Below, one piece after another: positions 21,564 to 50,373 of a stretch of 64,000 nt of DNA. This stretch comes from Micromonospora sonneratiae. GTDB taxonomy: Bacteria; Actinomycetota; Actinomycetes; Mycobacteriales; Micromonosporaceae. Position numbers and translations under genes: made by a program. The notes below the pieces were generated by a model. The model ran no database searches and was not told where the DNA came from. It saw only the letters and a list, made by a program, of their open reading frames with translations. The stretch covers positions 13,551 to 77,550 of the forward strand of contig NZ_JBHTMP010000017.1 in assembly GCF_042679305.1 (NCBI RefSeq), given 5' to 3'. The stretch's first letter is position 1. Every line of letters starts with the position of its first letter.

Positions 21564-23810
21564 CTACAGCCCCTCGGCCACGGCAGCGGCGATCTTCAAC
21601 CAGGCATCCTTGGTGGCGGAGGAGAGCTGGCCGTACCGGATCGGCTCCCCGGCGTCGATCAGGCGTTCGTACGGGGCCAGTAGGACGGCTCTGGTCCGGG
21701 CCGCGAAGTGCTGTTGAATCGCCGGCAGGTCGATCTCCTTGCGTGACGGTGGCATCGACACGACCGTCACCGCCTGCCGGACCAGGCGCTGTCGTCCGCT
21801 CTGTTCGAGATGGTCGAGCATCCGCGCCGCAGTCTCGGCCGAGTCGTTCCGGGCCGACATGGTTATCAGTAGCTGGTCGGTCGCGTCGATCGCGGCCTGC
21901 CAGTTCTGTGCCCGTACGTTGTTACCGGTGTCCACGAAGATCAACTTGTAGAACCGGCTGACCACCTCACGGAGTTCGGCGAACGCGCTGGCCGTCAGCA
22001 TCTCGCCACCGGTGGCGGACTCGTCGGAGGCGAGTACGTCGAACATGCCCTCGCCCTGAGAACGGACATACTGGGACAGGTCGCCGACCCGCCCGTGCGC
22101 TCCCTGGAACTGGCCGAGATCGCGGAGCAGGTCGCGGACGGTACGGGCGTGGAAGTCCTGCTGCGCCCGCATCCCGAGGGTGCCCTGGGTCTCGTTGTTG
22201 TCCCAGGCCAGCACGTACCCGCCACGCCTCTGACCGAAGGTCATCGCCAGCAGCAGGATCGCCACGGTCTTACCGGCGCCGCCCTTGGGATTGACGACGG
22301 TCACCTGCCGCAGGCCGCCGAAGTTACGGCGGACGGTATCGATGTCCTGCCTGACCTCCTGCTCGTGCCGGCCGGGTGAGAGCCGTACCAGACCCAGCGA
22401 GGTCCGGTTGACCGCAGCCCGGAGGCCCATGGTGGCGACCGGGTCGGGTGGGCGGACCGCCCGGCGACGTGCGAACTCGTCGGCCGTCGGGGCCGAGTTT
22501 TCCGGCGTCCAGACTGGTTCGGGATAGGCCGGCCCGGGTTGGGGCGGCATCCGGACCACACCGGGGGCGTCCTGGAACGGCTGCTGCGGTACCGGGGTGA
22601 CACCGGGATACCGCTCGCCCCGGGGACCGGGGATCCCCGGTGGCGTCGGTGGTCCGGGCGGTACGGCATCGCCCGGCCGGTACACCGGTGTCGGCCAACC
22701 GGGCATCGGTGCCGGCGGTCCGGGAGGTGCCGGCGGGTGCATGGACGGCGTGGGCGGATATCCGGCCGGAGTCGGGCGTGCGGGGCCGGGAGGAGCCGCA
22801 GGAGAACCGGTTCCGGCCGGACTGGTCGGGTGGGCCGCTGGCTCCGGTGCGGGCGGGTACGGTGCTCCGCCGGGCGGCGATACCGGGTGGGATCCGCCGC
22901 CGGGCGGCGATACCGGGTGGGATCCGCCCTGGGGCGGCGACTGCCGGGGCTCGGGAGCCCGGGGAACAGGTGGTGCGGCGGTGCCACGGGCCGTCGGCGG
23001 GCGCTGCGGAGGTTGCGCCCACGGCGACTGTGCGGCCTGCGGCAGGGTGGCAGGTCCTTCGGCGGGCTCGGGGCCACCGACCATCGGGGTGTCCATGGTG
23101 AACGGTTGGTCGAGGGTGACGGGCAGAGCGGCGCGGGTCGACGCTCTGCCAGCGACCGGGTCGGAGTTGGCCGACGGCTCGGAACCGGCTTCCGGGTCGG
23201 GACCCTGCTGATCCGGGGCAGCCGGCCGGTCGGTGTCCGACTCGGGCTGGTCACCGAGTTTCGGCTGCGGCTGGTCACTGGCGGGTGCTGCCGGAACACT
23301 CGGGTTGCCCGGGCCCAGGTCGGTGCCGGGGGACACCGGTGCGGTGGGGGGAGTTGGCGGCCCGACCACGGGCCAGGCGCGGGTGGGCAGGTCCGCCGGT
23401 GGCGTGCCCTGCTGGTTCGGCGGGACCGGGCCCGGCCCGGGCGGGTACGACGGCGGCCCGGGTGGCGTTGCCTGCTGGTTCGGCGGTCCGGGTGGGTAAG
23501 TCGGCGGCCCGGGCTGGTACGTCGGCGGACCGGGTGGGTACGACGGCGGACCGGGTGGGTACGACGGCGGTCCGGGCGGATAGACCGGGCCGGGTGGCGT
23601 GGCCTGCTGGTTCGGCGGGACCGGTCCGGGGACTGGCGGGTGGGCGAGGGGAGCGCCATGGCCGGGGTGACCGCCGTCGGGTTGTGGCTGCCCCGGACTT
23701 GCCCACGGCTCTGCCGCCAACTCGTCCGGTGCCCAGAACGGCTCGACATCGCGCTGTGGGATCGCTCCCTGACCTGGTACGTGAACCCGGTCCGTGTGCT
23801 CGTCCTGCAC
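21564..23810 (-). CDS. MinD/ParA-family P-loop ATPase with ~480-aa proline-rich N-terminal region
   Basis: C-terminal deviant Walker A (VVNPKGGAGKTV) and a ParA/MinD core. The N-terminus contains long PPGPP / PPSYPPGP repeats. The precise start is uncertain. Confidence 0.7.
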   Translation of the reverse strand: MQDEHTDRVHVPGQGAIPQRDVEPFWAPDELAAEPWASPGQPQPDGGHPGHGAPLAHPPVPGPVPPNQQATPPGPVYPPGPPSYPPGPPSYPPGPPTYQPGPPTYPPGPPNQQATPPGPPSYPPGPGPVPPNQQGTPPADLPTRAWPVVGPPTPPTAPVSPGTDLGPGNPSVPAAPASDQPQPKLGDQPESDTDRPAAPDQQGPDPEAGSEPSANSDPVAGRASTRAALPVTLDQPFTMDTPMVGGPEPAEGPATLPQAAQSPWAQPPQRPPTARGTAAPPVPRAPEPRQSPPQGGSHPVSPPGGGSHPVSPPGGAPYPPAPEPAAHPTSPAGTGSPAAPPGPARPTPAGYPPTPSMHPPAPPGPPAPMPGWPTPVYRPGDAVPPGPPTPPGIPGPRGERYPGVTPVPQQPFQDAPGVVRMPPQPGPAYPEPVWTPENSAPTADEFARRRAVRPPDPVATMGLRAAVNRTSLGLVRLSPGRHEQEVRQDIDTVRRNFGGLRQVTVVNPKGGAGKTVAILLLAMTFGQRRGGYVLAWDNNETQGTLGMRAQQDFHARTVRDLLRDLGQFQGAHGRVGDLSQYVRSQGEGMFDVLASDESATGGEMLTASAFAELREVVSRFYKLIFVDTGNNVRAQNWQAAIDATDQLLITMSARNDSAETAARMLDHLEQSGRQRLVRQAVTVVSMPPSRKEIDLPAIQQHFAARTRAVLLAPYERLIDAGEPIRYGQLSSATKDAWLKIAAAVAEGL

Positions 23811-25007: not shown

Positions 25008-26300
<1,293 letters not shown>

Positions 26301-40461: not shown

Positions 40462-41664
40462 CTAGCGGGCGATGGCCCGGGAGATGACCAGGCGTTGGAT
40501 CTCCGAGGTGCCCTCGAAGATGGTGTAGATCTTGGAGTCCCGGTACCAGCGTTCGACCGGGTGCTCCCGGAGGAAGCCGGCCCCGCCGAGGATCTGGACC
40601 GCCTTCTCGGTGACCGCCACGGCCACCTCACCGGCCTTGAGCTTGGCCATCGAGCCTTCGCCGGCCAGGAACGGGCGGTTGTTCCGGCCCATCCAGGCGG
40701 CCCGCCAGACGAGCAGTCGGGCGGCGTCGATCTCCATCTTCATGTCGGACAACGCGAAGGCGATGGCCTGGTTCTCGATGATCGGCCGCCCGAACTGGAC
40801 CCGCTCCTTGGCGTACGCCAGGGCGTACTCGTACGCGGCGCGGGCGACGCCGAGCGCCTGCGCGCCGACGGTCGGGCGGGACAGTTCGAATGTCCGCATG
40901 GCGGCCTGGCTGGCGGTGCGTTGCCCGGACCGGGCCCGGTCCAGCCGTTCCTGTAGCTTCTCGGGGCCACCGAGCAGGCAGCGTCCCGGTACGCGTACGT
41001 CGTCGAGGAAGATGTCGGCGGTGTGCGAGGCGCGTAGGCCGAGTTTGGCGAGTTTCCGCGTCGAGGCGAGGCCGGGCGTGTCGGGTGGTACGACGAACGC
41101 GGCCTGCCCCCGGGAGCCGAGTGTCGGGTCGACCGCCGCGGTGACCACGTGCACGTTGGCGATACCGCCGTTGGTGGCGTACGCCTTCTGCCCGGTCAGC
41201 ACCCACTCGTCGGTGGCCGCGTCGTAGACCGCCCGGGTGCGCATGGCGGCCACGTCGGAGCCGGCTTCCGGTTCGGTGGTGCAGAACGCGGCCACGGCCG
41301 GCTCGTCGACGGTGCCGAAGCACTGCGGCACCCATTCGATCAGTTGTTCCGGCGTGCCGCTGCCGTAGATGGCGGCTACGGCCAGGGAGGTGCCGAAGAT
41401 GCTCAGGCCGATGCCGGCGTCGCCCCAGAAGAGCTCCTCGCTGGCGATCGGCAGGGACAGGCCGGTCGGGTCGGCCCAGCAGGTTGCCAGGAACTCGAAG
41501 CCGTATAGCCCGACCTTGGCCGCTTCCTGGATCACCGGCCAGGGGGTTTCCTCCCGGGCGTCCCACTCGGCGGCGGCCGGGCGCACGACCTCGCTGGCGA
41601 AGCCGTGCACCCAGTCGCGTAGATCCCGCTGTTCCTCGTTCAGATCGAGCGAGAACTCGGCCAT
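40462..41664 (-). CDS. Acyl-CoA dehydrogenase family protein
   Basis: ACAD three-domain pattern with a catalytic Glu region (IFEGTSEIQRLVISRAI) and FAD/CoA motifs. Confidence 0.9.
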   Translation of the reverse strand: MAEFSLDLNEEQRDLRDWVHGFASEVVRPAAAEWDAREETPWPVIQEAAKVGLYGFEFLATCWADPTGLSLPIASEELFWGDAGIGLSIFGTSLAVAAIYGSGTPEQLIEWVPQCFGTVDEPAVAAFCTTEPEAGSDVAAMRTRAVYDAATDEWVLTGQKAYATNGGIANVHVVTAAVDPTLGSRGQAAFVVPPDTPGLASTRKLAKLGLRASHTADIFLDDVRVPGRCLLGGPEKLQERLDRARSGQRTASQAAMRTFELSRPTVGAQALGVARAAYEYALAYAKERVQFGRPIIENQAIAFALSDMKMEIDAARLLVWRAAWMGRNNRPFLAGEGSMAKLKAGEVAVAVTEKAVQILGGAGFLREHPVERWYRDSKIYTIFEGTSEIQRLVISRAIAR

Positions 41665-41665
41665 C

Positions 41666-42118
41666 TCAGGCCTTGGGGATGTCGAACAGGTTGGCGATGT
41701 TGGCGGCCAGGCCCAGGTCACCCTTTGCCTTCAGCTTGCCGGTCATGAACATCATGACCGGGTTGGCGCCACCGGAGACGATCTTGAGGAACTCGACCGG
41801 GCCCATGGTGAGGGCCAGCTTCGGCTCGCGCTCCGGGCTGGCCGGCACGGTGCAGGTGCCGTTCTCGATGACGACCTCGTAGGTGTCGGAGCCCCCGTCG
41901 GCGCGGCCGGTGATGATCCAGTGGATGACGGCGTTGGTGGAGCCGGCCCGGTCGGCGCGGAACAGTGACGGCATCCGGCCGAAGACCTCGTCGAGGATCT
42001 TGCCGCGCAGGTCGCTCTGCATCACCTGGGCGATCTTGTCGTCCGGGGTGGATTTGACGAGCTGGGCGAACTGCTTGGGGTCGACCGAGGAGAAGTTGGC
42101 CGGGTCGAAGTCAGTCAT
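41666..42118 (-). CDS. SCP2 sterol-carrier domain protein
   Basis: C-terminal KLKAKGDLGLAANIANLF and the general SCP-2 profile. The stop abuts the ACAD start. Confidence 0.8.
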   Translation of the reverse strand: MTDFDPANFSSVDPKQFAQLVKSTPDDKIAQVMQSDLRGKILDEVFGRMPSLFRADRAGSTNAVIHWIITGRADGGSDTYEVVIENGTCTVPASPEREPKLALTMGPVEFLKIVSGGANPVMMFMTGKLKAKGDLGLAANIANLFDIPKA

Positions 42119-42190
42119 TGAAGTCGCACCTTCCGGGACAAGATTAGTTACTACAGCGTAACCCTACGGGCGAGTAGGTAAGCTGACAAG

Positions 42191-42832
42191 GTGTCCACCA
42201 CACCCACCTTCAAGCGGCTGCCGCGCGCCGTACGGGAACAACAGATGCTCGACGCGGCCGTCAAGGTGTTCTCCCGGCGTGGCTTCCATGCCGCCAGCAT
42301 GGACGAGATTGCCGAGGATGCGGGGATTTCCAAGCCGATGGTCTACGCGTACCTAGGCACCAAGGAGGAACTCTTCGTCGCCTGCCTCCACCGCGAGGGC
42401 ACCCGGATGATGGAGGCGATCGCTGGTGTGATCAATCCCGAAATGCCCGCTGACCAGCGGCTCTGGCACGGGCTGAGGGCGTTCTTCCGGTTCGTGGCGG
42501 CGCACCGCGACGGTTGGGTGGTGCTCTACCGTCAGGCCCGGGGTGAGCAGCCGTTCGCCGGCGAGTTGGCTGTGATGCGCGCCCGGATGGTCGAGGTGGT
42601 CGCCGGCATGCTCGACCGGGCACTGCGGGCGGACGGCCGCGAGGTCCGCGAGATCGATCTGGAGATCCAGGCGTACGCCCTGGTCGGCGCGAGTGAGTCG
42701 CTGGCCGACTGGCTGGCGGACCGCCCTGACGCGGACCCGGACCAGTTGGCCGCCCGGATGGTCAACATTGCCTGGCTGGGGGCCGGTCAGTTGCTGAGCG
42801 GCGAGGTGTGGCGTCGCCCCACCGAAGGCTAG
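42191..42832 (+). CDS. TetR/AcrR-family transcriptional regulator
   Basis: N-terminal HTH (FHAASMDEIAEDAGISKPMVYAYLGTKEELF). Confidence 0.85.
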   Translation: MSTTPTFKRLPRAVREQQMLDAAVKVFSRRGFHAASMDEIAEDAGISKPMVYAYLGTKEELFVACLHREGTRMMEAIAGVINPEMPADQRLWHGLRAFFRFVAAHRDGWVVLYRQARGEQPFAGELAVMRARMVEVVAGMLDRALRADGREVREIDLEIQAYALVGASESLADWLADRPDADPDQLAARMVNIAWLGAGQLLSGEVWRRPTEG

Positions 42833-43053
42833 GCCGGGGTGGTGCGTCGCCGGCTGCGCCACTTCGCGGCGTACGGCAGCGCGAACAGGTACAGGCCGGA
42901 GAACAGGAGCAGGGCGAGCGGGAGCAGCGGCAGGTAGGACATCCAGAGGGCGGGCTCCTTCTGGGCCAGGGCGACGAACGCGATGACGACGGTCACCGTG
43001 AAGGTGATGGAGAGCCAGCGGTGGATTTGCCGTACCCACTTGTTCCAGTTCAA
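42829..43053 (-). CDS. Small two-TM membrane protein (74 aa)
   Basis: Compact ORF with two clear TM helices. It is convergent with, and overlaps by 4 nt, the TetR stop. Confidence 0.4.
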   Translation of the reverse strand: MNWNKWVRQIHRWLSITFTVTVVIAFVALAQKEPALWMSYLPLLPLALLLFSGLYLFALPYAAKWRSRRRTTPA

Positions 43054-43264
43054 TGGGACCTCCTCGTCAGTGAGAAACCCCGACCCGCAGCGACCTGTCG
43101 GGTGGGATGTCGATGACGGTCACGCTAGCTGCGGTCCGATGACCGGTGCTTCTCGATTCCTGATCGGTCTGGTCGGCCGATCTGCCTTGCGTGGCGACGT
43201 CTCGGCAGCGTGCTGGCGGTGACGTGCCGCCTGGTGCGATCCCGGCCCTGCCGGCCCGTCGACT

Positions 43265-44575
43265 TCACCGGGACTGGCTGACCGGCACCGTCCCGAGCGG
43301 CACCGTCCCGACCGGCACCGGCGAGTCGGCCGGGGCCGGGTCCAGCAGTGGCCCTCTCACCGACTTGTCCTCGGCCGTGGGGCCGTGGGAGGTGAGCACC
43401 ACCGGGCAGGCCAGCTCGTCCTCGACCGTGGCGACCCAGTCGCGGGGTGGTTCGTCGTACCCGGGTCGGGAGCGCAGCAGTCGACCGGTCAGCGCGGCCT
43501 GCCGGTCCAGGTCCCCGACCGGACCCGGTGCGAGCCGGTCCGTCCAGTCGTAGCGGCGACAGATCCGTAGCTGCGGACCGGCCAGGTCCAGGTGCGTCAG
43601 CGCCAGTCCGTCCACACCGCCGGCCACCTCCAGCGCGTACCGGTGGGCCACCGCGTCGAAGTGCCCGAACCGGAACCGGCCCTGCCACGGGTTGGTCGGG
43701 TTGCGCGGGTCGGCGAACGGCAGGGTCGGGTCCTCGGTCACCAGTGGCCCGGGACCGTGCCGGGTGGTGGCGGTACGCAGCACGCCGAGTCGGGTCGCCG
43801 TACCCGACATGCCGGCCTCCGCCAGCAGCCGCTCGGCGTTGGTGAACGTCGTCGTGCTCCACGTGGTGTACGGGTGGAAGCCGTGCCACTCGTCCAGCAG
43901 CACGCCCTGGGCGCCCTCGAAGACACAGGTCCCGGACCGCAGCAGCGTCGTCAGGTGATTGCCATCCACTATGGACACGCGCTCGGCGAAGGCGGTGAAG
44001 GCGGTGACACAGTCGTCCACCGGTGGGGCGTCCAGCGGGCCGAGTTCGGCGGTGAGCCGGTCACGCAGCGCGGCCAGCCGCTGGCGCAGCACGGCAGGCG
44101 TGACGCAGTCGCCCACCCGGGGTGCCTCGCCGGGGTACGCGAGGTCGTACGCCATCGTCTCGCCCACCCCCATGCCGCAGGAGCCGTGCCGGTCGGCTCC
44201 CCGGGCGACCTCGCGGGCCCGGTTCGCGGCCCGGTGGTACGGCGTGGTCAGCAGCGCCGCCCCGTCCACGGTGAGCCGGTCGAGCGCGTCCGGCACCCCG
44301 ACGGCGGCGAGGTGGTCGGCCTCGACGGCCAGCGCCAGCGGGTCGACCACCATGAACCGGGACAGGTGGGTTCGCACACCGGGTCGGAACGTGCCCGCTC
44401 CGAACTGCGCGAAGGTGTGCCAGCGGCCGTCGGGCAGGACGACGTTGTGCGCCGCCTGCCCGCCCCCGTTGAAGCGGACCACCGCGTGGACCGGCCGTGT
44501 CGCACACAGCCAGTCCACGACGGTGCCCTTGCCGGCGTCCCCGTACCCGAGGTCGACCACGATCACATGGCTCAC
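43265..44575 (-). CDS. Divergent adenylosuccinate-synthetase-like (PurA-family) enzyme, not the housekeeping purA
   Basis: P-loop GYGDAGKGT (compare QWGDEGKGK), AAHN (compare AGHT), FEGAQGVLLDEWHGFHPYTTWS and THLDLAG are conserved. The IMP/aspartate-binding motifs ([17 protein letters not shown]) are replaced. ATGA overlap with the VWA gene. Confidence 0.75.
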   Translation of the reverse strand: MSHVIVVDLGYGDAGKGTVVDWLCATRPVHAVVRFNGGGQAAHNVVLPDGRWHTFAQFGAGTFRPGVRTHLSRFMVVDPLALAVEADHLAAVGVPDALDRLTVDGAALLTTPYHRAANRAREVARGADRHGSCGMGVGETMAYDLAYPGEAPRVGDCVTPAVLRQRLAALRDRLTAELGPLDAPPVDDCVTAFTAFAERVSIVDGNHLTTLLRSGTCVFEGAQGVLLDEWHGFHPYTTWSTTTFTNAERLLAEAGMSGTATRLGVLRTATTRHGPGPLVTEDPTLPFADPRNPTNPWQGRFRFGHFDAVAHRYALEVAGGVDGLALTHLDLAGPQLRICRRYDWTDRLAPGPVGDLDRQAALTGRLLRSRPGYDEPPRDWVATVEDELACPVVLTSHGPTAEDKSVRGPLLDPAPADSPVPVGTVPLGTVPVSQSR

Positions 44576-45534
44576 AGCCGGGTGATCCGATCCGCGTCGG
44601 CCCGGACGGCGGGCAGCGGTGACACCGTGGTCGCCCGCCGGTTGGTACCCACCCGGGCGAGTGCCTTCGACACCGTCCTGGTGGTGGCCGAGCCCGCCTC
44701 GTCGAGGTCGTGCAGGCCGGTGTCGAGGTCGACGGCACCCTCGGCGAGGCCGATGGTGAGCGCGATCGTCTCGCAGACCGCGTTCAGGTCGTCCAGTTCG
44801 AGGACGTTCTGACCGAGCAGGTCCCGCCAGAAGTCCAGCACCCGCGCGTCCCCGGCGTACCCGGTTCCGGCCGGCAGCAGGTAGTAGGTGTCGTACCTAC
44901 GGGTCACCTCGTGGATCAGGTGGGCCAGCGGAACGGCCTCGGTCAACTCGTCGCCGATCAGCCTGCTCACCTCGCGCGGCTTGACCTCCGGGTAGGCCAG
45001 TTCGTCGCCGATGATGAACAGGTAGCCGCGGTGTCCCCGCCGCTCGAAACAGTCGATCGAGGTGTGCCGGGCCATGAAGTACAGGGCCAGCTCGTACGAC
45101 TCGGTCATCTGCCCGCCGCCGCCGCCCTCCAGCACGATCCGGCCGAGGTCGTCGTCCATCCGGTTGTCGGACTCGAACTGCCCGACCTGGAGCGGTACCC
45201 GGTCGCAGGTGGCGTCGCCGATCGCGCCGAACATGATCTGCGGATCGCGGGCGTACCCCTTGCGTTGCAGCAGGCCGAGCAGTTGCGGGAGCTTGGTCTG
45301 GAGCACCCGGGGTATGCGACGCATCGAGCCGGTGACGTCGAAGAGGACGGCGATCGCCAACGACTCGGGGTGTTCGGCCGAGTCACGGCTCTCCCGTGCC
45401 GCGCCGGACGGGTCGAGCGCCGGGTGGACCGTACGCGCCCCGCTGTCGCTGTAGGCGAAGGCGCTGGTGCCGGTCGACCGCCGATAGCGGTCGGCCGCGT
45501 CGTACACGTCGGTGGACCAGGTTCCACTACCCAT
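44572..45534 (-). CDS. von Willebrand factor A (VWA) domain protein
   Basis: MIDAS DxSxS motif (DVTGSM) with a downstream T and D (IIGDELAYP), in the VWA fold order. Confidence 0.7.
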   Translation of the reverse strand: MGSGTWSTDVYDAADRYRRSTGTSAFAYSDSGARTVHPALDPSGAARESRDSAEHPESLAIAVLFDVTGSMRRIPRVLQTKLPQLLGLLQRKGYARDPQIMFGAIGDATCDRVPLQVGQFESDNRMDDDLGRIVLEGGGGGQMTESYELALYFMARHTSIDCFERRGHRGYLFIIGDELAYPEVKPREVSRLIGDELTEAVPLAHLIHEVTRRYDTYYLLPAGTGYAGDARVLDFWRDLLGQNVLELDDLNAVCETIALTIGLAEGAVDLDTGLHDLDEAGSATTRTVSKALARVGTNRRATTVSPLPAVRADADRITRL

Positions 45535-45583
45535 GTCAGCCTCCAGGTCGGGTTGGGAAGGATCGAATCCAGCGGACTCGAAG

Positions 45584-46573
45584 TCAGTGGGACGAGTCGG
45601 TGGTCAGGGAGAAGGGACGGAAGACGCGCGGTCCGTACAGGCGCTCGAGCACGTCGTCCAGCTCGCCGAGCAGCCGCCAGGCGTCGTCGGGTCGGGCGCG
45701 CAGCGCCCGTTGGGTGCAGCCGTCGGCGAAGGCCCGCAGCGCCCGAGGGATGCGGTCGCCCATCAGGTACGTCATGCAGCGCGTCGCCATGGCGATGTCG
45801 GTGCCCGGACCGGGCCGGTGTCGCGCCGGCACCTCGGGCGGGTACCAGTCGGCGTACGCCGGTACCAGCGCCGGGACGGTGTCCTCGCCGATCACCGAGT
45901 AGCACCAGTCGACGAGCACCACACCGTGCTCGGTGGGCTCGATGAGTACGTGGTCGGGCAGCACCGCGCCGTGCACCACGCCGGCCCGGTGAGCGAGACC
46001 GAGCGCGACCAGCAGCCGCCGCCACATCCAGGCCGCGTCCCGGGGGTCGAGTCCGTTCGGGTAGGCCCGGTGGACCTCGGCGAGGCTGTGCAGGTCGGGC
46101 GCGGTGGCGACCACGTTGATCACGCGTCGGGCGGCGGTCGCCGGGTCCCGGTGCCGGAACGTCTCGACCAGCCGGGGCACGTACGGCAGATAGCGGGGGT
46201 CGCCCCGCTCGGCCAGCGTGCGCAGGGCGGTGGCCTCGCGTTCCATCAGGTCGTTGTTGGTCGGGTCGCGGGGGAGTTTGAGCCAGCGGCCCGACCCGAC
46301 GTCGTACAGGTCGGTCAGGTCGCCGACGTGTACGACGGCACCGAGGCGGTACGTCCCGACGATGGTGACCGCGTGCCGGGCCCGCCAGCGGGTGGTGACC
46401 CGGATGAACGCTTCGGTGGCGGCGGCCCGGTCGGCTGCGGTGGCGGTGCCGAGCCGATCCGGGTGCAGGGCGGTGACCAGCCGGCGGTACTGGCGGTCCG
46501 GCGCGACGCCGCCGAACAGTTCCTCGTCGGTGCGGGCCGTCGTGACGTGGCGTAGCGCCTCGACGAGGTTCAC
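45584..46573 (-). CDS. J-domain (HPD) N-terminus fused to a protein-kinase-like domain, possibly catalytically degenerate
   Basis: YRRLVTALHPDR is the J-domain HPD signature. Downstream, HGAVLPDHVLI is catalytic-loop-like and VDWCYS is DFG-like. The GTG start at 46573 overlaps the NUDIX stop (GTGA). The longer upstream ORF was rejected. Confidence 0.6.
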   Translation of the reverse strand: MNLVEALRHVTTARTDEELFGGVAPDRQYRRLVTALHPDRLGTATAADRAAATEAFIRVTTRWRARHAVTIVGTYRLGAVVHVGDLTDLYDVGSGRWLKLPRDPTNNDLMEREATALRTLAERGDPRYLPYVPRLVETFRHRDPATAARRVINVVATAPDLHSLAEVHRAYPNGLDPRDAAWMWRRLLVALGLAHRAGVVHGAVLPDHVLIEPTEHGVVLVDWCYSVIGEDTVPALVPAYADWYPPEVPARHRPGPGTDIAMATRCMTYLMGDRIPRALRAFADGCTQRALRARPDDAWRLLGELDDVLERLYGPRVFRPFSLTTDSSH

Positions 46574-47322
46574 CGGATCGTCTCCTCCCGCGCCGGGCGC
46601 AGCAGCGCCGGATGCAGGAGTCGGGCGTCGCCGGCCCGGTAGAGCCGGGCCCGGGGGCCGCCGCGCGCCCCACCGCGTTCGGTGGTCACGCCGGTGCTCT
46701 CCACGAAGCCGGGCACCGAGAGCACCTTCCGGTGGAAGTTGCCGGCGTGCAGCGCATGCCCCCACACCGTCTCGTAGACGGCCCGCAGCTCACCGATGGT
46801 GAACTCGTCACCGAGGAAACGGGTGGCCAACGGGGTGTACTCCAGCTTGGACCGGGCCCGCTCCAGGCCGTCGGCGACGATTCGCTCATGGTCGAAGGCG
46901 AGTTGCCGGGTGGGCAGGTCGGCCACGGGTAGCCAGGCCGCGTCCTCGGCGTCGGTGCCGGCGGCGGGATCGGGCAGGTCGGGTGCGAACGCGAGATGGG
47001 CGACCGACACCACCCGCATCCGTGGGTCGCGGTCAGGTGCGCTGTAACTGGCCAACTGCTCCAGGTGTACGCGTCGCAGCCGCTCGCCGCCGAGCCCGGT
47101 CTCCTCGGCCAACTCGCGCCGTGCGCAGGCGGCCAGGTCCTCGTCCGGCCGTACGAAGCCGCCGGGCAGCGCCCAGAAACCCGAGTACGGCGGTTCGGCG
47201 CGACGGATCAGTAGCAGGTGCAGCGCGTCGTCACGGATGGTCAGCGCGACCACGTCGGCGGTCACCGCGACCGGGGGAAACGCCTGTGGGTCGTACGCGG
47301 CGAGGAAGTCCTCTTCGGTCAC
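46570..47322 (-). CDS. NUDIX hydrolase fused to an NrtR-like C-terminal winged-helix domain
   Basis: Nudix box GGFVRPDEDLAACARRELAEETGL with a C-terminal wHTH-like domain (FTIGELRAVYETVWGHALHAGNFHRKV), as in Nudix-related transcriptional regulators. Confidence 0.75.
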   Translation of the reverse strand: MTEEDFLAAYDPQAFPPVAVTADVVALTIRDDALHLLLIRRAEPPYSGFWALPGGFVRPDEDLAACARRELAEETGLGGERLRRVHLEQLASYSAPDRDPRMRVVSVAHLAFAPDLPDPAAGTDAEDAAWLPVADLPTRQLAFDHERIVADGLERARSKLEYTPLATRFLGDEFTIGELRAVYETVWGHALHAGNFHRKVLSVPGFVESTGVTTERGGARGGPRARLYRAGDARLLHPALLRPAREETIR

Positions 47323-47406
47323 AGCGCCAGTTCTCCTCGTTCTGAGAAAATCTCAAGAAGAGAATAACTGGTGATCGTTTCGGCCACCAGTCCCCGGTAC
47401 GGTCGA

Positions 47407-47961
47407 CTACCTCGTGAACGGAGACCTCGGAAGCTGCGGCAGGGGTGGCCGATCACCCGCCTCGTCGATGACGGTGATCTGCCACCGGACGACCGGGGCT
47501 GCCAGCATCCGGCCGGCGTACCAGCCGAGGGTGCCGGCGGCGATGAGGATCGCCCCGGAGAGGTAGTAGACGGTCAGGTCGCCGAGGTCGACGGTATGGG
47601 CGACCCGGTTCAAGATGATCAGCAGCCCATCCCGATCCAGACAGTGCGGACCGCGGACCTCATACCGTCCGAAGTGTGTCAATGCAACCCCCAGGCTGGC
47701 ACCGGTGCCAGCCTGGGGAAACGCATCCTCAGCGAGGCAGTGGTTCGAGCGCCTCGCCGGCCGACTCTGCTCGCCAGCCGCCAGGGGCCCGTGCCCCGGC
47801 ACGAGGATGTCGAACACCTCGGACCGCATGCGTGAGCAGACCGAGGGCGGCGCATCCGGGTCGACGGTGCCGCTCCGCCAGCCCTGCCACATTCCGAAGG
47901 CCGCGACGATCAGGGCACCGGCGGTCAGCACGGCCAGCCGGGTCCTGCTCTCCGTTCCCAT
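47407..47961 (-). CDS. Hypothetical membrane protein
   Basis: N-terminal and C-terminal TM helices, no motif. Confidence 0.45.
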   Translation of the reverse strand: MGTESRTRLAVLTAGALIVAAFGMWQGWRSGTVDPDAPPSVCSRMRSEVFDILVPGHGPLAAGEQSRPARRSNHCLAEDAFPQAGTGASLGVALTHFGRYEVRGPHCLDRDGLLIILNRVAHTVDLGDLTVYYLSGAILIAAGTLGWYAGRMLAAPVVRWQITVIDEAGDRPPLPQLPRSPFTR

Positions 47962-48006
47962 GTCGCCAGTGTCGGAGAGGAAGGCAAGTGTCGATGGAGG
48001 GCCGGA

Positions 48007-48882
48007 TCACTCCGTCACTGGCAGGTCGTCCTGACGGATCGAGCCGATCAGGTGCGGTTTGCCGGAGGTCTCGTCGTACAGGGTGAAGTCGCGGTCGGCC
48101 GTCGTGCTGAACGCGACCGTGCCGGGCAACGTGATCGGCGTCTTGAACGACACGTCGACCGTGTACGCGTCGGGCAGCCGGCCGGCGAACGCCGCCAGGC
48201 ACCGGGCCTTGCTCCACATGCCGTGCGCGATCGGGCGCGGGAAACCGAACATCCGGGCTCCCAGCCGGGAGGTGTGGATCGGGTTGTGGTCGCCGGAGAC
48301 CCGGGCGTAGTCCGTACCCACCCGGCGATCCACCTGCCACCGGGCGGTAGCCGCCGGCGGTGCCGGTCGGTCCGCCGCCGCTGGCCGCTGGCCGTCCGTC
48401 GTCCGCTGCTCCCGGCTCAGGTACGTCGACACGCCCAGCCAGGCCACCACCCCGTCGATCGCTGCCGTGGCCACGACGTCGAACTGCTGTCCCCGGTCGT
48501 GCGGGCGCAGGTCGACGGCGCGTACCGACAGGTCGACGGGTTGTCCGGCGTCGATCGGCCAGTCCAGACTGATCCGGTTGGCCACATGGACCAGGCCGAC
48601 CAGCGGGACGGGGAAGTCCGGCGCGGACATCAGTTGCAGGGCGAGGGGAAACGCCATCACGTGCAGGTACGTGGCCGGCAGCGTGTCGGTCAGCCGGAAA
48701 CCACACACCCGGTCGTACGCGGCCAACCGGTCCCGGTCGACGGTGACGTTCCGGAGCAGGAGTTCGGAGTCGGGCAGGGTTTCGGGCCGGGGTGCCCGAC
48801 CCGGCCAGGGGAGCAGCCCGACGGCCGCCCGACGGTGGAACGGCCCGGTTGCCGGCATTCTGGTCAGTTCGACAGTGGACAT
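48007..48882 (-). CDS. MaoC-family (R)-specific enoyl-CoA hydratase/dehydratase, double hot-dog (HtdX-like)
   Basis: The MaoC motif VSGDHNPIHTS is in the C-terminal hot-dog. The gene sits next to a FabG4-like gene, as in mycobacterial Rv0241c-Rv0242c. Confidence 0.8.
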   Translation of the reverse strand: MSTVELTRMPATGPFHRRAAVGLLPWPGRAPRPETLPDSELLLRNVTVDRDRLAAYDRVCGFRLTDTLPATYLHVMAFPLALQLMSAPDFPVPLVGLVHVANRISLDWPIDAGQPVDLSVRAVDLRPHDRGQQFDVVATAAIDGVVAWLGVSTYLSREQRTTDGQRPAAADRPAPPAATARWQVDRRVGTDYARVSGDHNPIHTSRLGARMFGFPRPIAHGMWSKARCLAAFAGRLPDAYTVDVSFKTPITLPGTVAFSTTADRDFTLYDETSGKPHLIGSIRQDDLPVTE

Positions 48883-50373
48883 CTAAGCCCCCAGGAGGCT
48901 CTGGCCGCAGACGCGGACGACGTTGCCGGTCACGCCCCCGGACGCGGGCGAGGCGAACCAGGCGACGGTCTCAGCCACATCGACCGGCCGCCCGCCCTGC
49001 GCCATGCTGTTCATCCGTCGCCCGGCCTGCCGCAGCAGCGCCGGCATCCGGGCGGTCATCGCCGTCTCGATGAATCCGGGCGCGACCGCGTTGATGGTGA
49101 TGCCCCGACCGACGAGCACCGGGGCCATCGACTGCACCAGCCCGATCACCCCGGCCTTGGAGGTGGCGTAGTTGGTCTGCCCCCGGTTGCCGGCGATGCC
49201 CGCGATCGAGGAGACCCCGATCAGCCGGCCGCCCGTCGGGATCAGGTCGCGGGCCAGCAGCACGTCGTTGATCCGCTCCTGGCTGGAGAGGTTGACCTCC
49301 AGCACCGAGTCCCACCAGGCCGGGTCCATCCGGGCGATCGTCTTGTCCCGGGTGATGCCGGCGTTGTGGACGACGATGTCCACCCGTCCGTGTCGGCCGG
49401 CGAAGTGGTTCGCCAGTCGGGTCGGCGCGTTGGCCGCGGTCAGGTCGAGCTGTAGCGCCGTACCCCGGATGGAGTTCGCGACCTCGGCCAGCGTGTCGCC
49501 GACGGGCGGTACGTCCAGCGCGACGACGTGCGCACCGTCGCGGGCCAGCACCCGGGCGATGGCCGCGCCGATTCCCTGCGCCGCGCCGGTGACCAGCGCG
49601 ATCCTGCCGGCCAGTGGCCGGTCCCAGTCGACGTACGGCTGGTCGGCGGGCTGCCAGCCGACCCGGATCACCTGGCCGGAGACGTAGGCGGACCGGCCGG
49701 AGAGCAGGAAGCGCAGCGTCGACTCGATCGCGTACTCCGCGCCCGGGGTGACGTAGACGAGTTGGGCGGTCGTACCGCGCCCGAACTCCTTGCCGATGCT
49801 GCGGGTCAGGCCCTCCAGCGCCCGCTGGGCGGTGGCCTCCCGGGGTGACGCGCACACCTCGGGCGGGCTGCCGAGCACGATCACCCGGCCACTCGGTTGC
49901 AGGGTACGGGCGTGGGCGTGGAAGAAGTCGTAGAGCGGACGCAGCCCGGTCGAGTCGATGATCCCGGTCGCGTCGAAGATGAGCGCCGCGTTACGCGGCA
50001 CCTGGTCGGTCCCGGGCTCGGCCGGTGCGATGGCCACCGTGGTTTCCGGACCAGCCGCTGCCGTGGCCTCCGACTCGGCTGATGTCGGTGCCGCCGGATC
50101 GGGTGAAGCCGGTGCCGCCGGATCGGTGGGTGTCGTCAGTGGATTCGCGACCGCCATGAGCGGGTCGCGTACCTCGACGCCGGCACCGCCGAGCAGAATG
50201 GCGACCGGTGCGCGCATCCGTCCGTTGGGTGCGGCGTCGAGCAGGACCGGGCCGGGGACCAGCGGGTCGCCGGGGCGGTATCGGCGCAGCCGGGGCGGGT
50301 CGGGCAAGCCGAGGCGTCTGACCAAGGCACGACCTGATCCGGAGCGGGCAAAGGTCGCGTACCTGTCGCTCAT
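48883..50373 (-). CDS. fabG: FabG4-like high-molecular-weight 3-oxoacyl-ACP reductase (N-terminal flavodoxin-like + SDR)
   Basis: SDR motifs VTGAAQGIGAAIA, NNAG and YATSKAG follow a ~190-aa N-terminal extension. Confidence 0.85.
   Translation of the reverse strand: MSDRYATFARSGSGRALVRRLGLPDPPRLRRYRPGDPLVPGPVLLDAAPNGRMRAPVAILLGGAGVEVRDPLMAVANPLTTPTDPAAPASPDPAAPTSAESEATAAAGPETTVAIAPAEPGTDQVPRNAALIFDATGIIDSTGLRPLYDFFHAHARTLQPSGRVIVLGSPPEVCASPREATAQRALEGLTRSIGKEFGRGTTAQLVYVTPGAEYAIESTLRFLLSGRSAYVSGQVIRVGWQPADQPYVDWDRPLAGRIALVTGAAQGIGAAIARVLARDGAHVVALDVPPVGDTLAEVANSIRGTALQLDLTAANAPTRLANHFAGRHGRVDIVVHNAGITRDKTIARMDPAWWDSVLEVNLSSQERINDVLLARDLIPTGGRLIGVSSIAGIAGNRGQTNYATSKAGVIGLVQSMAPVLVGRGITINAVAPGFIETAMTARMPALLRQAGRRMNSMAQGGRPVDVAETVAWFASPASGGVTGNVVRVCGQSLLGA

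Follow-up and report, generated by a model that had tools for sequence, protein, structure and literature searches.

What does an operon accomplish that joins a Nudix protein with a DNA-binding domain, a J-domain fused to a kinase-like domain, a VWA protein and a second, divergent member of the PurA family? The question is posed by four genes of Micromonospora sonneratiae on the minus strand of a 64,000-nucleotide stretch of DNA (contig NZ_JBHTMP010000017.1), hereafter the window, which a sequence-only reading had singled out as a Nudix-regulated module acting on a modified nucleotide. Searches of the full-text literature yielded no description of the gene set, nor of the function of the trio formed by the J-domain, VWA and PurA-like proteins. 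The sole mentions found are genome notes of the SEA-PHAGES programme in which a 'serine/threonine kinase' and a 'PurA-like adenylosuccinate synthetase' are recorded as C1-specific (PMC9476963). Two further candidate sources were set aside: the genes listed in a Vi01-phage paper are unrelated and non-adjacent, and an Esx/MoxR-vWA preprint is likewise unrelated.

The best overall explanation that we can offer is a self-repressed operon encoding a three-protein nucleotide-ligase machine that is shared by actinomycetes and large phages, and taken as a whole we give it an even chance of being correct. The evidence for it includes the residue pattern of the PurA-like enzyme, by which this ligase is rewired and not decayed, and its constant pairing with the VWA protein. 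The features on which the argument draws are the following.

43265–44575, minus strand: gene 4, PurA-like enzyme, 436 amino acids
44525–44542, minus strand: P-loop GDAGKG in the GTP site of the PurA-like enzyme
44572–45534, minus strand: gene 3, VWA protein, 320 amino acids
45325–45339, minus strand: MIDAS motif D66-x-T68-G-S70 of the VWA protein, joined by D177
45370–45534, minus strand: N-terminal Met-Gly and predicted flexible tail of the VWA protein, amino acids 1–55, from the family alignment and AlphaFold
45584–46573, minus strand: gene 2, J-domain/pseudokinase protein, 329 amino acids
46376–46573, minus strand: J-domain of gene 2, amino acids 1–66, from profile matches and the invariant HPD at amino acids 37–39
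within gene 2, minus strand: kinase-like domain, amino acids ~70–329, from PHROG, the CK2/PknA profile and Foldseek
46570–47322, minus strand: gene 1, Nudix protein fused to a winged helix-turn-helix (Nudix-wHTH), 250 amino acids
46873–47253, minus strand: Nudix domain of gene 1, amino acids 24–150, with an intact Nudix box, GGFVRPDEDLAACARRELAEETGL
46636–46821, minus strand: winged helix of gene 1 (NrtR_WHD), amino acids 168–229
47335–47348 and 47351–47364, minus strand: tandem operator units TTCTCttcttGAGA and TTCTCAgaacGAGg, from a motif search; presumed repressor site overlapping the promoter

The PurA-like ligase and its partner proteins

The fourth protein belongs to the PurA family, matching Pfam PF00709 at 2.7e-58 (198 bits) and E. 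coli PurA (1ade) at 2.4e-31 with ~30% identity, but it lies far below the models that define adenylosuccinate synthetase: 155.1 bits on NF002223 (cut-off 402) and 112.9 bits on TIGR00184 (cut-off 395.6). The canonical purA that had been noticed elsewhere in the window, at 25011–26300, reaches 634.8 bits on the equivalog model. In E. coli PurA, residues D13, H41 and Q224 serve phosphoryl transfer to the 6-oxo group of inosine monophosphate (IMP), and V273, T300, T301, R303 and R305 recognise L-aspartate. Mapping the E. coli residues onto 66 viral copies and the bacterial copies (E. coli numbering throughout) reveals a family in which G12, D13, K16, G17, H41, Q224, T239, R272 and D333 are kept; the GTP-site and catalytic residues among them (G12, D13, K16, H41, Q224, D333) are present in the window protein and in 65–66 of the 66 viral homologues. 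The rest of the substrate site is altered. N38 is replaced by Q in 65/66, T129 by C or V, R131 by M, V or L and K331 by C or H, and R143 is lost, such that among the ligands of the IMP 5'-phosphate three are changed or missing (N38Q, T129C, R143) and T239 alone is kept. At the aspartate-binding positions V273 has become H in all 66, T300 is W, F or Y, T301 is Q in 65/66, R303 is deleted in every copy and R305 is F, L or M; the window protein reads H, W, Q, deletion and F. What had been proposed for a single protein, namely that the GTP motifs are retained and the IMP and aspartate motifs replaced, is thus a property of the whole family. With D13, H41 and Q224 kept and the aspartate set replaced, the residue pattern indicates a working enzyme of GTP-dependent lactam activation whose new acceptor pocket is conserved and largely non-polar. 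At its C-terminus (43265–43320, minus strand) the M. sonneratiae protein carries a species-specific, short Pro/Val-rich tail of GTVP repeats, PVPVGTVPLGTVPVSQSR; the homologues are devoid of it and cover 92–98% of the query.

The VWA protein has no match in Pfam, NCBIfam or PADLOC; neither it nor any of 24 diverse family members matches a Pfam VWA model, including vWA-TerF-like, at E<=1, and a profile of these 24 sequences finds nothing among the PDB sequences. It does match PHROG 2971, a family of 'unknown function', at 1.5e-71. The MIDAS motif (DxTGS...D) is complete, as had been claimed, with D66, T68, S70 and D177 all in place. The protein further contains a RESRDSxxHP motif and an insert holding PLQxGQFE and LEGGGGG. 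Invariant or nearly so across the family are R47, E48, D51, S52, H55, P56, D66, T68, G69, S70, D107, Q116, Q119, F120, E121, G139–141, E145, S146, Y147, G176, D177 and E178, which account for the motifs RESRDS, DxTGS, QFE, GGG, ESY and GDE; residue conservation of this kind is typical of an enzyme. All 58 of the 58 members compared begin with Met-Gly. With 1,837 clusters at 50% identity (E<=1e-3) the family is large, and its apparently long representatives P0361, P0388 and P0475 are frameshifted assemblies. Copies without an adjacent ligase are very few, and one of them (L136) keeps the N-terminal Gly.

Several VWA genes are interrupted. One homologue (P0473) has an intein inside the invariant KGY/FIIGDE motif, and in several cluster C mycobacteriophages, among them DrPhinkDaddy, Quasimodo and CharlieB (H11–H14), a ~760-bp insert splits the gene; in two cluster C phages the feature underlying the match to this insert is annotated 'HNH endonuclease'. 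Important sites of high conservation are the usual targets of selfish elements.

Gene 2 encodes two domains. The N-terminal profile matches only J-domains in the PDB (auxilin best, at 4.3e-5, then DNAJC8 and DnaJ), the HPD motif does not vary among 20 sequences from actinomycetes, phages and plasmids and is usually kept family-wide, and AlphaFold models amino acids 1–60 of the J-domain with a predicted local distance difference test (pLDDT) score of 80–92. The remainder has a kinase fold, as judged from a PHROG family named 'kinase' (7.8e-52), a CK2-alpha/PknA profile match and Foldseek matches to eukaryotic-type kinases. Its motifs are altered: HRD reads HGA, the following N is H and DFG is DWC, with a catalytic loop HGAVLPxH instead of HRDxKxxN. 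Across the family the position of the HRD aspartate is occupied by A (32), G (19), N (3) or S (3) and by Asp in 0/57; the DFG Asp persists in 26/57 and the VAIK Lys in 51/57. Since the catalytic Asp is missing, the domain is a pseudokinase, which the sequence-only reading had suspected. The protein is missing or reduced to a remnant in five bacterial loci (L020, L043, L066, L070, L078) and without its J-domain in three more (L030, L053, L074), and because of these eight loci we regard it as accessory.

The cassette in bacteria, plasmids and phages

The operon itself is compact. Genes 1 and 2 share a GTGA overlap (46573–46570), a 49-nucleotide spacer with a GGAGG ribosome-binding site (45535–45583) separates genes 2 and 3, and the VWA and PurA-like genes overlap at 44575–44572. 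The last junction had been given as ATGA and reads GTGA, the PurA-like start codon being GTG; otherwise the four coupled genes are real as described. The start of gene 2 at 46573 is fixed by a 329-amino-acid M. sonneratiae protein that is 100% identical to its product. All four domain assignments hold, on Pfam, PDB and PHROG profile matches, Foldseek for the kinase and the MIDAS residues. Three points had been named beforehand on which the interpretation could have failed: a canonical purA proves to be present, the four genes are co-conserved and the kinase and VWA folds are supported. The GC content (0.70–0.77) is close to that of the flanks, which argues against a recent insertion and rules out a recently acquired island. 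No riboswitch was found by Rfam in 42800–48100, and a scan for sigma-70 promoters and terminators returned nothing, as expected of a 72% GC actinomycete.

Conservation in bacteria was assessed on the closest 80 loci from a genome scan for which a diverse VWA alignment served as seed. All are from Actinomycetota except one metagenome-assembled genome labelled Terriglobales, and they include Micromonospora, Dactylosporangium, Actinoplanes, Catellatospora, Actinoallomurus, Actinomadura, Nonomuraea, Streptosporangium and Streptacidiphilus. In about 70 of the 80 actinomycete loci the genes follow one another as Nudix, J-kinase, VWA and PurA-like, which answers the question of neighbourhood conservation with strong co-conservation of the four genes. 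The cassette is bordered on one side by MaoC and ketoreductase genes and on the other by TetR, SCP2 and acyl-CoA dehydrogenase genes, and these flanks recur in 44 Micromonospora loci and in no others. Because the order persists across genera while the flanks persist only within Micromonospora, the four genes are an inherited unit; a fifth conserved gene was found neither in the 80 bacterial nor in the viral and plasmid loci. Identity across Micromonospora is 75–88%, and on these comparisons the cassette of this genus is a vertically inherited core locus at a fixed housekeeping site. A location in defence islands, which had been suggested as a check, is not what is seen: the Micromonospora locus has the same flanks in all 44 cases, and the core trio is phage-borne. 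The chromosomal distribution outside Actinomycetota is known only from plasmids.

The translations suggest that the flanks in the window itself are acyl-CoA dehydrogenase, SCP2-like and TetR genes (40462–42832) and a MaoC-like dehydratase and a ketoreductase gene (48007–50373). Between the MaoC-like gene and the cassette lies a 184-amino-acid open reading frame (ORF; 47407–47961, minus strand) with no Pfam match; the 44 Micromonospora loci that are otherwise syntenic have no counterpart at that position, as if a lineage-specific insertion had displaced the usual promoter-proximal sequence here. Elsewhere, the 'Terriglobales' genome (L070) and a 1.2-kb contig labelled Nonomuraea (L010) hold Micromonosporaceae-like copies with 72–78% identity, which suggests artefacts of binning or contamination, or else a recent transfer. 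In six Dactylosporangium loci (L046 and five others) a KptA/Tpt1-like RNA 2'-phosphotransferase and a DEAD-box helicase follow ~4 kb downstream of the cassette, a recurrence that probably reflects lineage synteny and not functional linkage.

The trio extends far beyond these bacteria. With the VWA protein as tblastn query we found 220 GenBank phages, 202 of Mycobacterium (Bxz1/ScottMcG/I3 type, 43% identity), 10 of Rhizobium and 6 of Vibrio, and the PurA-like query returned the same groups in the same numbers (about 202, 10 and 6). Every cluster C mycobacteriophage found, about 200 in all, has the trio; in ScottMcG it comprises gp252 ('kinase'), gp253 (VWA), the small gp254 and gp255 ('PurA'). 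Vibrio phage Va1 and Rhizobium phage RHph_TM21B have the adjoining VWA and PurA-like genes as a pair only. Rhodococcus megaplasmids carry the order J-kinase, VWA, PurA-like, Nudix, and Agrobacterium vitis plasmids a divergent Nudix-wHTH gene followed by the trio. An HPD J-domain is present in every 'kinase' from the phages, Rhodococcus and Agrobacterium, and the catalytic Asp in none. In IMG/VR at least 527 viral contigs, mostly of 100–500 kb and with a local GC of 28–71%, encode the VWA family; the VWA gene is accompanied by an adjoining PurA-like gene in about 76 of 80 such loci, by the J-kinase in about 68 and by a Nudix-wHTH gene in 9, and the commonest order is J-kinase, VWA, PurA-like. 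Clustering of all ORFs from 85 phage and plasmid loci produced no other ubiquitous partner besides the VWA and J-kinase genes, and no Rosetta-stone fusion was found. All four window proteins match PHROG families strongly, and the phage and bacterial VWA and PurA-like copies share all invariant residues. On this distribution the VWA and PurA-like proteins are an obligate pair, and the J-pseudokinase is sometimes lost.

Six viral contigs (L107, L111, L114, L115, L118, L122), all of them also with the Nudix gene, have a Nampt gene (NAMPT_N and NAPRTase) inside the cassette, where it separates the VWA gene either from the Nudix-wHTH gene or from the PurA-like gene. These insertions are the sole direct gene-level link to the salvage of nicotinamide adenine dinucleotide (NAD).

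Regulation and proposed function

Gene 1 was described as a Nudix enzyme fused to an NrtR-type wHTH, and this is upheld by the Pfam Nudix (PF00293, 1.5e-23) and NrtR_WHD (PF21906, 3.5e-11) matches and by the best PDB matches, Shewanella NrtR (3gz5, 1.2e-29, full length) and AraR (5bs6, 2e-27). On the NCBIfam NrtR equivalog the protein scores 128, below the cut-off of 400, and in NCBIfam its Nudix domain is similar to the ADP-ribose pyrophosphatase portion of NadM-Nudix. The RELxEETG core of the Nudix box is kept in actinomycete and phage copies and degenerate in those of Rhodococcus and Agrobacterium; NrtR_WHD likewise matches the phage and Agrobacterium copies, and its match to the Rhodococcus copy is weak and stays below the Pfam cut-off.

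The 84 nucleotides upstream (47323–47406) are AT-rich and hold both operator units. A motif [TA]CTC-N5-6-GAG[AT] precedes the Nudix gene in 77/77 orthologous regions, usually as two tandem 16-nucleotide units, at a density of 13.7 per kb as opposed to 0.15 per kb over whole loci, and this although the upstream regions cannot be aligned between genera. A -10-like TAnRTT stands directly before the first unit in 64/77, the window's own -10 being less clear. The region is thus regulatory, as had been supposed; the small palindrome pointed out there does exist (TGAGA-TTT-TCTCA, 47343–47355) and is the junction of the two units. Chance is excluded by the gene order conserved across loci and by the presence of the operator in all 77 upstream regions. 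The Agrobacterium, Rhodococcus and phage-contig cassettes have different palindromes at the same place, and lineage-specific operators are typical of NrtR. Autorepression by the Nudix-wHTH protein is the natural reading of this arrangement, and the bacterial operon is predicted from its operator to be normally held repressed. A sequence one mismatch away from an operator unit, TTCTCAGGGCGAGG, occurs at 22049–22062 (minus strand), at chance level (1.2 matches expected per window at that stringency).

From what is observed, namely the anatomy, the conservation, the residue pattern and the operator motif, we infer the substrates, the effector, the coupling to DnaK and the biological role as follows. 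The Nudix-wHTH protein would occupy the tandem TCTC-N6-GAGA operator that covers its own promoter and, to judge by its family, leave it on binding an ADP-ribose-like nucleotide. The PurA-like enzyme would most likely still activate an IMP-like nucleotide with GTP, because the GTP site and the residues that phosphorylate the 6-oxo (lactam) group are kept, and, with an invariant His/Trp/Gln/Phe pocket in place of the one for aspartate, would couple the activated base to some other nucleophile, probably an uncharged one. The VWA protein may present this nucleophile or form part of the active complex, and the J-domain pseudokinase, frequent and dispensable, could be a non-catalytic adaptor that brings DnaK to the complex. 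The output of the trio would serve nucleotide metabolism or cell takeover and not classical defence signalling, since lytic phages of many hosts carry the same trio with the same invariant residues. That the ligase makes or consumes a modified nucleotide, as first hypothesised, appears the best reading of its residues; the data do not point to the accompanying idea of a VWA/kinase pair that senses or relays, the obligate pair being VWA and PurA-like.

Several points weigh against this scheme. The 6-oxopurine substrate is deduced from the retention of D13, H41, Q224 and T239, and with three of the four IMP 5'-phosphate ligands changed the nucleotide may differ substantially. The NrtR link could place the module in NAD/ADP-ribose metabolism. 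For the J-pseudokinase the proposed role is a guess from the domains that it contains, and DnaK coupling is not essential to the core, because Vibrio phage Va1 and Rhizobium phage RHph_TM21B manage with VWA and PurA-like genes only. Finally, the predicted structures are mediocre: the two AlphaFold models, built on shallow alignments, have pLDDT values of 59 and 63 and are adequate for fold assignment only.

The strongest rival, which we nevertheless hold to be unlikely, makes the cassette an NAD+/ADP-ribose module whose trio repairs or exploits the breakdown of NAD+. ADP-ribose would be the signal perceived by the NrtR-type protein, and the PurA-like enzyme would act on an ADP-ribose- or NAD-related nucleotide, for instance through GTP-dependent activation after which a nitrogen nucleophile attacks; in phages the module would counter NAD-depleting immunity. 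Gene 1 is after all a full-length NrtR homologue whose Nudix domain is like the ADP-ribose pyrophosphatase part of NadM-Nudix, six of the nine viral loci with a Nudix-wHTH gene have Nampt inside the cassette, and RHph_TM21B has NMNAT/Nudix and phosphoribosyltransferase genes ~3 kb upstream. The loss of the 5'-phosphate ligands N38, T129 and R143 would also fit a bulkier 5' substituent. Yet about 70 of the 80 viral loci have no NAD gene near the trio, the lactam-deprotonating and phosphorylating residues D13, H41 and Q224 are invariant although ADP-ribose as substrate would make no use of them, the regulators of the NrtR family are not confined to NAD genes (AraR is the second-best PDB match), and the VWA protein and J-pseudokinase are left with no role.

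A bolder possibility, in our view a long shot, is that the PurA-like enzyme modifies protein, joining the C6 of a GTP-activated 6-oxopurine nucleotide to the alpha-amino group of the N-terminal Gly of the VWA protein, which would be exposed after removal of the initiator Met; DnaK, brought in by the J-pseudokinase, would load the complex or recycle it, and the nucleotide would be sensed or trimmed by the Nudix protein. This would explain why a dicarboxylate pocket has turned into an aromatic/His/Gln groove, why VWA and ligase are never separated and why Met-Gly precedes the flexible tail in 58/58 members. If true, a protein N-terminally linked to a purine nucleotide would be a modification not described before.

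The four remaining explanations are progressively less compatible with the data, in the order in which they follow. Base hypermodification, which we think improbable, would have the enzyme turn a 6-oxopurine of the nucleotide pool, DNA or tRNA into an N6-substituted adenine-type base, with no later lyase step, unlike PurZ. Large phages, in which the module is enriched, often modify their DNA, PHROG groups the enzyme with PurZ-type synthetases, the ScottMcG cassette adjoins a polynucleotide kinase gene, and as no PurB-like lyase is linked the N6 adduct would persist. However, on the PurZ model NF038379 the window protein scores 31.2 bits and the phage and plasmid copies 40–57 (cut-off 300), no dATPase, pyrophosphatase or polymerase partner was found linked in the 85 phage and plasmid loci, actinomycetes keep the cassette as a stable chromosomal operon under a metabolite-type repressor, and we know of no modified base reported for cluster C phages.

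Anti-phage defence or abortive infection, with the ligase making a toxic or signalling nucleotide and the phage copies serving as decoys or anti-defence, is likewise improbable. The kinase-like domain weakly matches the defence kinases MkoA (3e-9) and PD-T4-6, copies reside on Rhodococcus and Agrobacterium megaplasmids, and the predicted repression of the bacterial copies is typical of costly systems. Against this, the VWA and PurA-like proteins have no match in PADLOC 2.0 and the other two only domain-level matches, the Micromonospora locus is fixed among fatty-acid metabolism genes, vertically inherited at 75–88% identity and similar in GC to its surroundings, and the phage copies are not degenerate decoys because they share all invariant residues with the bacterial ones.

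A second, specially regulated adenylosuccinate synthetase isozyme with incidental neighbours is very improbable. The family-level homology to Pfam (2.7e-58) and to E. coli PurA (2.4e-31) and the public records, which all say 'adenylosuccinate synthetase' and name the other parts 'serine/threonine protein kinase' or 'hypothetical protein', are outweighed by 155 bits against a 402-bit cut-off (634.8 for the real purA of the window), by the replacement of the aspartate determinants in every member and by the co-inheritance of the neighbour genes across phyla and phages; we reject a redundant enzyme on these grounds. A TerY-P-like triad, in which a kinase phosphorylates the VWA protein on a signal and which the adjoining VWA and kinase-fold genes had called to mind, can hardly be entertained, being contradicted by a catalytic Asp missing in 57/57, a DFG Asp in 26/57 only, the lack of any linked phosphatase (PP2C) gene in the bacterial and viral loci and the failure of 24 diverse VWA members to match TerY/TerF or any other Pfam VWA model.

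The three-protein ligase machine that we favour matters beyond M. sonneratiae. A trio without assigned function is present in all cluster C mycobacteriophages found, in hundreds of large uncultured phages (hosts of 28–71% GC) and as a fixed operon in many actinomycetes, and the invariant rewiring of its active site points to a new reaction of the PurA family, the GTP-driven ligation of a purine-like base to a partner other than aspartate. The yield could be a new nucleotide metabolite, a new protein or nucleic-acid modification or a new phage use of host Hsp70, and thousands of records ('adenylosuccinate synthetase', 'serine/threonine kinase', PurZ-like) would need correction. The question is tractable: the Bxz1-like phages and Mycobacterium smegmatis are genetically amenable, and the bacterial operon comes with its own predicted repressor and operator.

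Comparison with known systems

Compared feature by feature, the gene set fails the defining features of PurA, PurZ, the NrtR of NAD regulons, the TerY-P triad and the PADLOC defence systems. Like NrtR and AraR, gene 1 combines Nudix and a C-terminal winged helix over its full length and, like NrtR, has a palindromic operator predicted at its own promoter. It differs in falling under the NCBIfam equivalog cut-off (128 vs 400), in its operator of tandem short TCTC-N6-GAGA units, in a controlled operon that has no NAD gene in the window and in its intact Nudix catalytic box, which is degenerate in classical NrtR. Neither the operon nor its conserved neighbours include a gene of NAD synthesis or salvage.

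Gene 2 recalls proteins of the GAK/auxilin type, in which a kinase or adaptor domain is combined with a J-domain that recruits Hsc70. Here too a kinase-fold domain and a J-domain share one chain, and the N-terminal profile finds its best PDB match in the J-domain of auxilin (4.3e-5); the domain order is reversed, however, the kinase is dead and the protein occurs in bacteria and phages. The likeness is an architectural analogy that carries no evidence of common descent. With TerY-P (TerY VWA, Ser/Thr kinase and PP2C) the cassette has in common a VWA gene beside a kinase-fold gene; unlike it, the cassette has a pseudokinase, a non-TerY VWA protein and no phosphatase, and adds a J-domain and a PurA-like ligase.

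PurZ, the N6-succino-2-amino-2'-deoxyadenylate synthase of Z-genome phages, uses aspartate as co-substrate and works with DatZ, MazZ and DpoZ. The PurA-like enzyme resembles it as a phage-borne PurA paralogue with predicted altered substrate use, and PHROG 1211 covers both. A Z-genome role is rejected on its 31–57 bits against a cut-off of 300, on the loss of the aspartate pocket and on the lack of linked Z partners, DatZ, MazZ and DpoZ not being among the ubiquitous partners in the ORF clustering of the 85 loci, which included no search by name. With PurA (EC 6.3.4.4), finally, the enzyme shares fold and family, the P-loop GDxGKG, D13, H41, Q224, T239 and the guanine-specifying D333. It departs from PurA in its replaced aspartate determinants, in the changes at R131, R143, N38 and T129, in scores far under the equivalog cut-offs and in its unfailing linkage to a VWA gene. 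Each component of the cassette belongs to a known superfamily.

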